Assembly: GCA_951406725.2 (NCBI GenBank)
Contig: OX597815.1
Coordinates: 53,568,001-53,632,000 of the forward strand
DNA length: 64,000 bases
Direction: 5' to 3'
Source: Octopus vulgaris
Taxonomy: Eukaryota
The notes under the pieces were generated by a model that did not search any database, was not told the DNA's origin, and was given only the letters and a program-made list of their open reading frames with translations. Made by a program: the position numbers and the translations under genes. Positions 7,921 to 56,437 of this stretch are shown in pieces (position 1 is the stretch's first letter; every line of letters starts with the position of its first letter).

Positions 7921-8002
7921 CCAGCATGGGTAGTTCTCAGTCTCATCATTTAAAGTACGAAACTGAGTAATACCATCTGGTTGATAACTAATGGGGAATT
8001 AC
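7921..8002 (+). ncRNA. Permuted hammerhead-like motif, family 1 (degenerate core)
   Basis: ctcagt-C-tcatca ... gtac-GAA-actgag ... tgataa-CTAATGG: stem III 6/6, stem I 5/6, outer helix ccag(c)atgg(g)ta/taccatctgg; core differs from CTGATGA at two positions. Confidence 0.5.
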
Positions 8003-8259
8003 AGACCTTCTGTGTCCGTCTTCCGTCCGGTTGTACACTCAGTATACGTTGTACGTTTTTGTACCCTCTTGTTTATTTGCAATATGTGTGTGTGTACATA
8101 TATACATACACACACATATATATATGAATGTATATATATATATATATATACATTTTCTTTCGTGTTAGTCCGTTTTTCCATGTTTGCCATTCCTGACACT
8201 GATGCTTATTTCTTTTGCTAAGTAAATGATATTTCACACGATATATATAATTAAAAAAA

Positions 8260-8297
8260 CTGTCCGACGAACGGGAACGTGAAACTCTGAGTAACAG
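8260..8297 (+). ncRNA. Minimal type-I hammerhead ribozyme motif (U4C core variant)
   Basis: ctgt-CCGACGA-acg ggaa cgt-GAA-actc t gagt-A-acag: stems I, II and III all pair, GUA cleavage triplet; followed by aataaa and (TA)n. Confidence 0.7.
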
Positions 8298-8344
8298 CTT
8301 TTGTTATATTTCTGCTGCTTTTAAATAAAGTATATATATATATG

Positions 8345-8695
8345 GAATGCAAATGAATAACAAGGATGTCCAGGTATCAATGCACTACGGGCATTTCAAG
8401 TGGCTCCATTTATTCAATTAATGAAAACATTAAATCGATTTGAAATAAACCGCTTCCCTCAGTTGCAGATGACCATATAGATTTCCAATATAACCAATTT
8501 TATGTCAGTACTAGAAACCAAAATAATTACAGTGTTTACTTATGTTATATTCGTGGCAGAATGGATGGTCATCTATATTTGAGGAGAGCGGTTTCTTTGA
8601 AATTGATATAATGTTTTCATTGATGGCTTAAATGGAACCGCTTGAAACGGCCGTAATGCATTGATACCTAGACATCCCTGTTACTTATTTGCACT
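8345..8695. repeat. Diverged inverted repeat (arms about 8345-8476 and 8563-8695), Penelope pseudo-LTR-like
   Basis: tgcaaatgaataacaaggatgtccaggtatcaatgcactacgg... is the reverse complement of ...ccgtaatgcattgatacctagacatccctgttacttatttgca; contains gaaacggccgta (HHR GAA-stem III-GUA remnant). Confidence 0.7.
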
Positions 8696-8861
8696 TATAT
8701 AACTTCGAGTTATATATATTATAACTTAGGATACCTACGAGATACCGCCATGCTGAAATTAGCAGCCATGATCTGAGTTTAAAACAACCTTAAGTGTTCA
8801 TATAGCACACGGAGAGAAGACATAAAGACAAAAAGTAACACTAATAAAAAAATTACTGGAT

Positions 8862-8920
8862 AATTCCAGATCCCGGATTTCTGGCTTTGCATTTAGGAAT
8901 GCTTTGCCTCATGAGTGTAA
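8862..8920 (-). ncRNA. Degenerate type-I hammerhead motif
   Basis: Reverse strand ttaca-CTCATGA-ggc...gcc-a-GAA-atcc g ggat-C-tggaa; one core substitution and one stem I mismatch. Confidence 0.5.
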
Positions 8921-52218: not shown

Positions 52219-52260
52219 GTACCTGAAGAGACCTAGAACGGGTCAAAATATGTGTTGTAC
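52219..52260 (+). ncRNA. Degenerate minimal type-I hammerhead motif
   Basis: gtac-CTGAAGA-gacc tagaacg ggtc-AAA-atat gtgt-T-gtac (G12 to A), followed by aataaa. Confidence 0.55.
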
Positions 52261-53092
52261 CCAATAAAGCCTAATACAAATTCCATCTCCTAAATTGTTA
52301 CCTCAAACTATATAAATGAGGAAGCTATTCTTTGTCATGCTTTACATCTTAGCTTCGTAGTTAGATCTAAAATATTTTTCTGGCTCTGAAGAGAAAAGCC
52401 ACTTTCAGTTTTCCTCAGTTTTCCTTCGCTAAGTTTAGACTGTGGATGTGTTAACCCAGAGAGGTCGACAATGACAACGAAACCTAGCATTGAAAGAAGA
52501 GAGCAAGAAAACAACAAAGCAATGAACCACGTCTTAGTAATATTCCGTAAAGTGAACATTTAAATATCTACAAATGGAAATTTCCATATATTTCTCCTTT
52601 ACAAAATAAATAAATAACAGAAATAATTCCGAAAAATAGAAAACTAATATTTTTTTTTAAATTTCAATCCAAAACTAAAGAGGAAACACTGACAATCGTT
52701 ATCGAAAAACAATACTATGACGACAAAAACCAAGGAAACTGTTTCATCTGCAGAACATATGATGGCTGAAAGCGCTTATACAAAAAGCATTTTTCTAGTT
52801 TCCAACAGGTCAATGTTAATTAGTTGCCTTAAAAGATTTTTGAACTTTTATAAGATGTTTCAATGAAATATTTCATACATAGTGTCTTCATGAAGAACTT
52901 TCCCTCAAATTTATATATATACATACATACACACATACTCACAATACAAACACACACACACACATATATATGTATATATATATATATATATATATATACA
53001 TGTTATATATGTGTATATATATATGTGTATATATATATATATATATATATATATATATATATATATATATATATATATATATATATACCATA

Positions 53093-54037
53093 TTATAATT
53101 GAGGGCTAAAGAGGGTTATTCTAAAGCCAATACACTGATTTATCCACTTATAATCCACTTGTTACAGGAAAATTGAACTGAAAGCGGGCAACTAACCTTT
53201 AGAAAATTTAAATTTCGTTATCTCTATATTGAATCAATTTCGGAATTAATCCTATAAAGGGATACATTCTTCTTCAGTAGAGCTTACGAGAGAATATAAA
53301 TAAAATACTCACATGTGATCATGGAAAAAGCAGAAGCTAAAAACATAACTACATTTAAGTACATCATTTATATCTAAAAATAAAAATTCCCTGGTCAGTT
53401 TCAGAACAACGTGTTGACCTTTCGCCGCTACATATTGTAACAAGTGGATTATAAGTGGATAAATCAGTGTATTGGCTTTAGAATAACCCTCTTTAGCCCT
53501 TAATTATAAGATGTTTATACTTCAACCGTAAAGGATTTTTTTAATATACTGCCACGCTTTTTGATGGAATCCTTTTCTGTAGAGAAAGGGACTTCATCCT
53601 ATATTGTTAGTAGTAAACTTACTGCTTGTTACAAGGGGACCGGTAACCATTACAATATGTAGCGGCGAAAGGTCAACACGTTGTTCTGAAACTGACCAAG
53701 GAATTTTTATTTCTAGATATAAATGATGTACTTAAATGTAGTTATGTTTTTAGCTTCTGCTTTTTCCATGATCACATGTGAGTATTTTATTTAAGCTCTA
53801 CTGAAGAAGAATGTATCCTTTATAGGATTAATTCCGAAATTGATTCAATATAGAGATAACGAAATTTAAATTTTCTGAAGGTTAGTTGCCCGCTTTCAGT
53901 TCAATTTTCCTGTAACATGTGGATTATAAGTGGATAAATCAGTGTATTGGCTTTAGAATAACCCTCTTTAGCCCTTAATTATAAGATGTTTATACTTCAA
54001 CCGTAAAGGTTTTTTTAATATACTGCCACGCTTTTTG
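53093..54037. mobile_element. Young HHR-bearing element: 475 bp unit in 1.25 tandem copies plus inverted arm
   Basis: 53444-53562 repeats at 53919-54037; 53093-53440 is the near-identical reverse complement of about 53649-53983; HHR on plus 53796-53855 ctcta-CTGAAGA-agaat..attcc-GAA-attga t tcaat-A-tagag and mirror copy at 53222-53282. Confidence 0.9.
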
Positions 54038-54051
54038 TTAGTTATATATAT

Positions 54052-54237
54052 AGGCTCCGGTAGTGTGTGGTGGCGATCCCGGCTATACTCTTTCGCCACA
54101 ACTTTCTCACATTCTTTTTTCTGTTGGCCTGCTCCCTTAGCCAGCGGGGTAGCGTCATTTGAAGGCTAAAACAATGCGAAGCGCATTGTGGCCAGCGATG
54201 TGTAGAAACATCAGATAGCCTGGTCGGTCACGGTGAT
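54052..54237 (+). mobile_element. 5'-truncated SINE of the tRNA-Arg-like family (second body type)
   Basis: ggctccgg...ctctttcgccacaactttc then gttggcctgctcccttagccagcgggg...ggtcacggtgat, matching the reverse complement of 59531-59710. Confidence 0.85.
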
Positions 54238-56437
54238 ATATACATCTATGTATATATATATATATATATATATATATATATATATATATATATATATATG
54301 TTCTATATATATATGTTGCTTGTTTTGATTATAATCACCCCACGAATTTATTTGGATAACACCATACAGAATTCTGGTGCAGCTAAATTAAGTACCTTAT
54401 TCATTTGTACGTATTTTTGTACACTTATTCGTGTTATCATTATTGTTTTTACGTATTTTTGTATTTTTATTTGTGTAACATCGTCCGGTTTTCCGTCCTT
54501 GTTTGTATACATTCGAGGCTTTCTTCCAAGGAATCTAATGCGCTTGGCTTAGATTTTCCTTTGGGGCTGGCCAGATCGGAGCAATCTCAAGATTAATCAG
54601 CCGAAATTGCGAGGATGATCCGGTTCTTGACTGAAGATAGACGATACAAAAAAGTCAGACGATACAAAAAAGGACAGGGAAAAACAATGAGTGAGGAACC
54701 GTTTTAGAAAGTCGAAAGGCACTAACCTTTGGTAAGAGATTTCACAAAATGTGTGTGGCTTTTGCTTTTATAGAAGTGCAAGCAGGTGTTATTACACACC
54801 GACACCTACACCCCCCACACACATATATATATGTACCAATATATATATGTGTGTGTTTGTGTGTGTGTGTGTTTGTGTGTGTGTGTGTATGGGTTAGATT
54901 TTATTGTTACCGTCCAGATAAGAGCAGTCTCGAGAGTAACAGGCCGAAACTGCAAAGACGATCTGGTACTCAACTGAAGATTGAAAGCTCCGAAATTACC
55001 CGTCATTGTTTTTCCCTGTCCTTTTTTGTATCGTCTAACTGTCCGAATGTTTTGTTGTCGCCTGTTACGTTCTTGTTCAATTTTTTTATATACTTATAGC
55101 GGCGTACGTACACTTTTGGTCTCCTGTATGTAAGTACATATACATATATATATATATATATATATATAATCTGTGCGACTCTTCTACTCTTTCTTTCAGC
55201 CCCTTTCACACTCTTCGTTTCTTTCACTTCTACTTTTCTCGCTCGTACCCTCTCTCAAATTTCTTGACCTTTCCTTCACTCTCAGCACTTTCCTTCCTCC
55301 TTTGAATCATTCTGTCCCTTTCCTTTTTTCTCTATTTCTCGTCCTTCCCTAATTCTTCAATCCCTCTACCACTACCTCTCTCCTCTCCTTCCACGTGATC
55401 GGTGTTCGTTCAAGCCTGACCTTTCTTTCTTGGTTCGACTACCATTCGTGTAGCGCCTCTTATATTCCTTCCTATGACTTTTATCTTGTATATTCCTGCC
55501 GTAAGGTTTCACTTCCATACACGCCAGCTTAATCCAATTTATCCTTAGTCGAAAGACACCTGTTGTTAATGTCCTGTTGTTTGTATTTGTAACTGTGTAC
55601 AATTTCACCGTCTTTCTTTCGTCCTTATTTTCGCATACATTCGCTTGCTTAGATTTTCTTGGGGTCGGCGAGATTAGAGCAGTCACGAGAGTAACTGGCC
55701 AAAACTGCAAAGACGATCTGGTATTCGGCTGAAAAGTGAAAGCACCGAATGACCCGCTCTTGTTTTTCCCTGTCCTTTTTTGTATCGTCTAACTGTCTGA
55801 ATGTTTTGTTGTCGCTTGTTATGTTCTTGTTCCATTTTTTGTTTTGTTTATATATATATATATATATATATATATATACCTGCATACATACATACATGCA
55901 TACACACATACATATATCTATAAACACACACACAACACACACACACATATATATATATATATATATATATATATATATATATATATATATATATATAGAG
56001 AGAGAGAGAGAGAGAGAGAGAGAGAGAGAGAGAGAGCGAACAAAGTTATTTTATTCCACACGGGTGATTTTCAAAAAGTTCAGACAGAAAGACGTGGCTT
56101 ACGTCGCAGCTGCCTTACTTTTGACTAGCGATTGAGGCTTGCCCTATTCTTATGGGCTCAATTTAGTATATGTTTTGAATAGGATTAGATTGGTAGAGGA
56201 TAGTTATACGACTTCTTAGAAATTTTAAAATTCATGATTAAGTTTATAACCATATATAACCCGAAACTATATGGTTCGGAACCAAACTTTTTAACACACA
56301 GCAATGCGTACATAATACCTACCTACCTACCTACCTACCTACCTACCTACCTACCTACCTACCTACCTACCTACCTACCTACCTACCTATCTACCTACCT
56401 ACCTGCATACATACATACATACATACATACATAAATA

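Follow-up and report, generated by a model that had tools for sequence, protein, structure and literature searches.

In a 64,000-nucleotide stretch of the Octopus vulgaris genome (NCBI GenBank assembly GCA_951406725.2, contig OX597815.1, positions 53,568,001 to 53,632,000, forward strand; hereafter the window), we analysed seven repeat copies that carry the parts of a hammerhead ribozyme in a non-circularly permuted order. Our reading, to which we assign a probability of roughly three in four, is that they represent a hammerhead that folds in cis near the 3' end of Naiad-type Penelope-like elements (PLEs) and of ~750-nt non-autonomous units, and that is predicted to cut. Its strand order, S-G-C, is already known (S, stem III strand, cleavage triplet and stem I strand; G, stem II strand, GAA and stem III strand; C, stem I strand, CUGAnGA and stem II strand); what appears to be new is a split block C with its stem II strand upstream, together with the helices P4 and P5. 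The original prediction had placed all core pieces at seven + strand loci, in the order site, GAA, CUGAnGA and with stems I and III and an extra helix, and had known of no description of the strand order while allowing that one might exist. All seven loci are present with this order and these helices, but only the one at 36235 is fully intact against its family consensus, and the S-G-C order has been published and shown to cleave as a monomer (PMC10085705).

The loci were used as anchors for families F1 (7921), F2 (20067), F3 (22495), F4a (36235 and 54565) and F4b (54915 and 55663), and for each family a consensus was built from 20–30 aligned copies picked by likeness to the window copies. A sixth consensus, F5, was made from nine fetched copies that resemble, by eye, the published 3' untranslated region (UTR) of Naiad_Ovul.

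Architecture of the split core

The strands follow the order P4a, P5 hairpin, IIa, P0a, IIIb-U-H-Ib, IIb-GAA-IIIa, P0b, Ia-CUGAnGA, P4b. Stem II had been named as the weak point, with a partner either 4–5 nt after CUGAnGA or upstream of the hairpin, and this doubt was justified. Taking position 11.1 as the anchor, we looked for Watson-Crick partners within ~110 nt upstream and 60 nt downstream. Upstream of the hairpin, the best partner in F1, F2, F3, F4a and F4b had 5, 5, 5, 5 and 6 bp (GCACC/GGUGC, GAAGG/CCUUC, ACGCC/GGCGU, GGCUG/CAGCC and GGCCGG/CCGGCC), compared with 1, 3, 1, 4 and 1 bp within 8 nt after A9; F5 had 6 bp upstream and 2 downstream. All six consensuses therefore have an upstream stem II of 5–6 Watson-Crick pairs, differing in sequence, rather than one just after CUGAnGA. 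When the 46-nt upstream stretch was shuffled, it held a stem II partner with P = 0.068, 0.028, 0.042, 0.052 and 0.005 (F1 to F4b). Stems I, II and III abut the core, and the 10.1-11.1 pair is G-C in 5/6 consensuses and A-U in F3.

The extra helix, which we call P0, is found in 6/6 consensuses, where it begins directly after IIa and stops directly before the stem I strand. It corresponds to the stem I/II interaction helix of type SGC, whereas P4 and P5, the helices that set this form apart from published SGC, had been missed. Taken together, the upstream stem II and the connectivity of P0 indicate that the RNA is a type-SGC ring, made up of stems I–III plus the I/II interaction helix, in which the opening of SGC is closed and the break lies between A9 and G10.1.

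P4 and P5 were obtained by constrained folding, in which only the pseudoknot strands and the core were blocked and stem III was forced. In 6/6 consensuses P5 lies 0 nt before IIa and P4 0–2 nt after A9, and the leader strand of P4 stands 0–2 nt before P5 in all but F5. Both helices arose jointly in 4, 12, 5, 8, 8 and 6 of 300 shuffled flanks for the six consensuses. Because P4 and P5 would bridge this break in a four-way junction, with all six helices in cis, a single copy of ~145 nt could fold alone, and a dimer would not be needed.

Changes between families follow the helices. F4a and F4b, which are 84% identical, differ by a two-sided change in each of stems I–III and by no change in the core, and swapping strands among five families lowers stem II from 25/25 pairs to a mean of 7.5.

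Conservation, copy number and controls

The core (CUGAnGA, GAAA, and U-H with A15.1-U16.1) is kept in all six consensuses. Among the individual copies, selected as above for likeness to the window copies, it is intact in 13/30 for F1, 6/30 for F2, 12/30 for F3, 20/20 for F4a and 19/30 for F4b. A first look at the 2.8-Gb genome returned 471 F1, 3881 F2, 301 F3, 1973 F4a and 1875 F4b candidates. Across forty 10-kb stretches, ten of them adjoining the window, we counted 11 copies of more than 50 nt; a rough extrapolation to the genome is tens of thousands of copies. Two diverged F2-like copies (L159:7592-7881 and L109:2558-2843, both on the − strand) have stems I, III and P0 that are altered yet still paired.

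A descriptor with this strand order, suggested earlier as a check, performed above chance: in its strict form, leaving stem II aside, it gave 5 matches in 464 kb (the window plus the 40 stretches, both strands) compared with 0–1 in each of 10 local dinucleotide shuffles, and 4/5 of the matches were family members. A relaxed form applied to the examined loci returned the four known clusters and two singletons (70/101 matches clustered), and no additional family. It had also been expected that standard descriptors would miss this layout, and Rfam indeed gave no match at gathering level in the window. At 36150-36380 there were only two chance small nucleolar RNA matches, the 13 matches in five loci included no ribozyme family, and the 150 listed of 343 matches ranked by E-value across the whole window were all microsatellite-driven. 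Unconstrained folding of three window copies (z = -2.38, -0.52 and -1.63) was uninformative because the core helices are pseudoknots.

Occurrence in Naiad elements

Naiad PLEs were described, in the accessible part of Craig et al. (2021, PMC8557442), as being without canonical hammerheads, some of them having core halves 35–50 nt apart to which no structure could be fitted. These 'HHR_core' and 'HHR_half_core' annotations resemble the split core in their CUGAnGA in the 3' UTR, GAAA 35–50 nt off, (TA)n preference, and tandem and inverted insertions; unlike in these Naiads, no open reading frame (ORF) was found joined to F1–F4. Naiad_Ovul, flagged there as a half-core, shows by eye exactly the split-core layout. 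Its half-motif has 325 exact matches in the genome (control, 0), and the F5 consensus has the 6-bp upstream stem II, P0, P5 and a weak P4; no ORF was reached within 1.15 kb in the nine F5 copies.

We parsed by eye the last 420–600 nt of 30 of the 54 Naiad consensuses in the supplement of that study. The six-helix layout, P4 and P5 included, was recognised in 7/30 (Obim, Ovul, Bfor, Chem-3, Movir-2, Amil and Plae), which come from Mollusca, Ctenophora, Cnidaria and Acanthocephala; in Bfor stem I has just 2 bp, and the two octopus entries have a weak P4. Esco shows the layout in part. Six Naiads of nematodes and spiders (Parc, Nbra-1, -2 and -3, Hpol and Smim) parse as complete type CSG with a I/II interaction helix, and Naiad-1_Movir, viewed against the twister alignment, has a twister-like motif where others have a hammerhead. 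Five more (Naiad-1_Chem, Naiad-2_Chem, Naiad_CGi, Naiad_Tgra and Naiad-1_Pfla) share a different ~70-nt structured-looking motif at the ribozyme position, a candidate hepatitis delta virus-like or other self-cleaving RNA, and 10/30 had no motif that we recognised. The split-core RNA looks like the ribozyme reported missing from Naiads and, on these parses, probably answers the published question about their cores. More speculatively, the CSG sequences of Eckert et al. (2023, PMC10085705), to whom this type was known from soil-metagenome DNA only, may derive from nematode Naiads.

Proposed mechanism and alternative explanations

In hammerheads, stems II and III are stacked in a single column with the G12/A13-G8/A9 pairs. 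In the split core, P4 would stack on P5 via their contiguous strand, so that P5's 3' end and P4b's 5' end would lie side by side, and stem II would stack on the core, giving a four-way strand-exchange junction. Because the P4/P5 stacking would place these two ends next to each other, A9 and G10.1 could remain adjacent without a backbone link, and a normal core could form and cut after the NUH triplet. Tandem transcripts might then be cut to unit length, ligated into circles, and copied by the element's endonuclease and reverse transcriptase (RT) from a nick in (TA)n, a scenario we regard as evenly balanced. A circular template made from tandem transcripts has been proposed for PLEs (PMC4209133, in the part available). 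In our scenario, copying of such a circle would yield inserts that continue across the cut site, both 5'-truncated ones and ones longer than a unit.

A number of observations weigh against a cis-acting split-core ribozyme. The stem I and II strands were found via a complementarity search, so the 30/30 pair counts arise partly by construction; P4 by itself was found in 62–121 of 300 shuffles, and in F5 it is weak, with a first run of 3 bp and a 7-nt gap to P5. We found no precedent in the literature for a hammerhead active without the A9-G10.1 link, a step that Eckert et al. assumed to be uninterruptible, knowing of no alignment with more than 1–2 nt between these positions (PMC10085705). The Naiad parses were made by eye, and their names were inferred from the sheet order of the supplement (PMC8557442). 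No ORF was found joined to F1–F4; that of Naiads has an N-terminal GIY-YIG endonuclease and a C-terminal RT, and no PLE ORF motif was found upstream on the same strand at the examined loci in a search made without a Naiad protein query. Lastly, none of 39 young F4a copies starts at the predicted cut, all of them reaching 13 to >127 nt further upstream, and among the incidental copies only 5/21 starts between -46 and +59 fall within 5 nt of it. We are less sure of the role in transposition. All 39 young copies extend across the predicted cut, so their template was either not cleaved or religated. A circle would explain this and the longer-than-unit inserts, but an inactive structure would do so too. 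Independent support for the split core comes from U-H and stem III lying in register, from IIa keeping its place between P5 and P0, and from the shuffles and the changes between subfamilies. In one run guessed to be RNA, a contig links a (TA) tail to 36257, immediately 3' of the predicted cut. As this is 1/7 such joints and the other six (from runs of unknown kind) fall elsewhere, we did not count it.

The best-surviving alternative, which we consider unlikely, is a conserved 3' structure that is non-catalytic or protein-dependent, i.e., a hammerhead-derived fold acting as a template signal for the RT and endonuclease with little or no self-cleavage. It would account for the lack of a 5'-end pile-up at the cut (0/39) and for the covalently interrupted core, and it is in line with the poor in vitro cleavage of metazoan PLE hammerheads (PMC4209133) and the 8/9 retrozyme dimers that stayed uncleaved in a 2026 preprint (bioRxiv 10.64898/2026.07.22.740005), as far as the accessible parts of these two sources go. 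However, six consensuses from families that hardly align retain all catalytic nucleotides and the NUH triplet, as do, by eye, Naiads from four phyla. Other Naiads have a CSG hammerhead or a twister-like motif in this position, which speaks for selection on cleavage.

The original prediction had favoured a tight pseudoknot or an obligate dimer or trans ribozyme, in which the CUGAnGA tail of one tandem unit completes the hairpin of another. Tandem and inverted neighbours do exist, and canonical metazoan PLE hammerheads act as dimers (PMC4209133, in the part available), but here all helices close in cis within ~145 nt, P4 pairs the copy's own ends, and stem III has 5–6 bp extended by P0 rather than the 1–2 bp that force dimers. 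SGC with the same short linkers also cleaves as a monomer (PMC10085705), and we consider an obligate dimer unnecessary and quite improbable. We hold an ordinary type-SGC ribozyme, with stem II downstream of CUGAnGA past a 4–5 nt insertion, to be very improbable: F4a does offer a downstream partner of 4 bp, 5 nt past A9, and F2 one of 3 bp, but the downstream partner is 1 bp in F1, F3 and F4b and 2 in F5, that of F4a is lost in F4b whereas the upstream pairing changes on both sides, and the downstream bases of F4a lie in P4. Finally, a chance arrangement multiplied by repeat copy number has a negligible probability considering the shuffle controls and the layout common to five nearly unalignable families and seven published Naiads, even though each family counts only once and short helices are common in repeats.

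Copies in the window and their units

The best window copy, from F4a (36181..36323; + strand, as for all seven), is by its family consensus an intact six-helix split-core hammerhead of ~145 nt; the motif is present where it had been placed but extends beyond the 36235-36320 first assigned to it. The 5' strand of P4 (36181..36194) pairs in folding with 36310-36323, closing the molecule with 13/14 pairs kept. P5 (36197..36234, from constrained folding) ends immediately 5' of G10.1, where the stem II strand begins (36235..36239, paired in the scan with 36268-36272). The 5' strand of P0 (36240..36248) has its partner at 36286-36294 and, by its connectivity compared with PMC10085705, is the equivalent of the SGC interaction helix. 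Block S (36251..36262) holds the stem III strand, an AUC triplet with a predicted cut 3' of C36256, and the stem I strand; block G (36268..36280) holds the stem II strand, GAA and the stem III strand. Half of block C (the stem I strand and CUGAAGA, 36295..36307) is then followed by the 3' strand of P4 (36310..36323) in place of stem II.

The other six copies are decayed or truncated to varying degrees. The F1 copy (7913..8078; predicted site C7942) is 5'-truncated with a core decayed to CTAATGG, and the F2 copy (19973..20276; C20090) mostly retains its helices while its GAAA is short of one A. The F3 copy (22382..22651; A22512) has an intact core and a decayed upstream stem II strand (2/5 pairs). 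The second F4a copy (54457..54638; C54586) has core and stems I–III intact and stops just past the core, losing the 3' strand of P4. For F4b, the first copy (54894..55086; C54929) is 5'-truncated, has a decayed stem II (2/6 pairs) and is the upstream member of a partial tandem, and the second (55584..55874; C55684) has two core substitutions (AAAA and CTGAAAA). From cut site to cut site, a whole unit of ~755 nt (54930..55684) comprises the tail, (TA)n and a pyrimidine-rich body, with longest stop-free frames of 88 and 101 aa. A short inverted F4 fragment (54653-54690, − strand), typical of PLE inversion junctions, lies between the copies at 54565 and 54915.

Four families had been called unrelated, and their ribozyme regions are indeed almost impossible to align (the best match between families, F1 with F3, has 71% identity over 56 nt, E = 0.001), but common descent is likely for F1 and F4 because their units share, by eye, a head motif after the (TA)n junction. 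Tandem copies are 678–815 nt apart, cut to cut (F1, F4 and F2 pairs; 1–2 units per locus in loci of 3–4 kb). A common tail-(TA)n-head junction occurs in 5/6 F1 pairs and 4/5 F4 pairs, and one F2 pair is spaced by 747 nt. Upstream, long copies lead into the tail of the preceding unit rather than into an ORF. The (TA)n insertion bias, 5' truncation, and partial tandem and inverted copies are shared with other PLEs and are not diagnostic. On this indirect evidence, F1–F4 are probably ~750-nt ORF-less units at (TA)n that derive from Naiads as non-autonomous elements, and Naiads may mobilise them, judging from the shared ribozyme and target. They look like retrozyme-like units: as in non-long terminal repeat (non-LTR) retrozymes, they are noncoding tandem units of a few hundred nt with one ribozyme each, but this ribozyme is not a type I hammerhead.

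We considered a GIY-YIG fragment beside an F2 copy as an ORF partner and rejected it, as it belongs to a different family with a C-terminal endonuclease, with an F copy at 3/30 loci and inconsistent orientation. A young intact PLE family (L211–L214) has a 775-aa frame with C-terminal GIY-YIG, many near-identical copies, and a ~1.1-kb 3' UTR that lacks a CUGAnGA core on the element's strand. A broken Neptune-like PLE in the window (~48680-50760, − strand), with an RT thumb, C-terminal endonuclease and pyrimidine-rich UTR, ends in a decayed canonical-order core near 48800. Fragments of long interspersed nuclear element type (5204-5512 and 15559-16095, both − strand) have zf-RVT and endonuclease Pfam matches below cut-off.

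Comparison with known hammerheads

We consider it reasonably likely that this RNA adds a seventh topology to the natural hammerheads, that it works as a monomer although a four-way junction replaces the A9-G10.1 backbone, and that it is a main 3' ribozyme of Naiads across several animal phyla. Together with CSG in nematode and spider Naiads, it would mean that animal genomes are rich in non-circular hammerheads (here with tens of thousands of copies), with one retroelement clade recording steps between permutations. If so, these permutations would no longer be a metatranscriptome rarity, and forms known from unassigned meta-omic sequences would be placed in named animal transposons. The rule of a contiguous CUGAnGA block and stem II, the basis of the six-permutation scheme and of published descriptors, would be overturned, the puzzle of Naiad hammerhead cores without a fitting structure would be resolved, and P4/P5 would offer a natural insertion point for engineering switches into the core. 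A full-text literature search that reached few subscription journals and no preprint supplements turned up neither a split block C nor permuted hammerheads in Naiads, and there was no such variant in the available portions of PMC13725137, PMC7936874, PMC10162972, PMC8370743, PMC2777235 and PMC3088659.

Among the closest known systems is type SGC (HRIMA-1 and variants; Eckert et al, 2023, PMC10085705), seen in metatranscriptomes only, in contrast to the thousands of copies in an animal genome here. Both have the cyclic S-G-C order, which differs from the C-G-S order of types I, II and III, along with two core pseudoknots, a short Ib-IIb linker, a full core, and a helix formed by the strands that precede Ia and follow IIa (here P0). 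Unlike in SGC, block C is split, with IIa far 5' and CUGAnGA followed by P4, and P4 and P5 are added. Because the stem II partner is upstream and block C broken, rather than stem II following 0–2 nt after CUGAnGA, we would not class the RNA as SGC; the published descriptor, which wants stem II directly after CUGAUGA(U)G, cannot match it. Natural hammerheads do accept one inserted nucleotide between 9 and 10.1, and those of PLEs usually have it (PMC4209133 and PMC3705267, available parts). Type CSG, assayed by Eckert et al. on two soil-metagenome sequences, shares the ring and the interaction helix but has an intact block C, is opened after IIIa and is without P4/P5; SGC and CSG monomers both cleave in vitro and require the interaction helix (PMC10085705).

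Both cyclic orders coexist in the window, as type I-like hammerheads of canonical order with short stem III lie at 10826 (+), 10654 (−) and 21361 (−), two of them an inverted pair. The type I hammerheads of Penelope/Neptune pseudo-LTRs and non-LTR retrozymes, as set out in the accessible parts of PMC4209133 and of the 2026 preprint (bioRxiv 10.64898/2026.07.22.740005; type I only in that part), resemble the split-core RNA in lying near the PLE 3' end, in their non-autonomous tandem units and in the proposed circular template, and differ from it in their canonical cyclic order, weak stem III and action as dimers.

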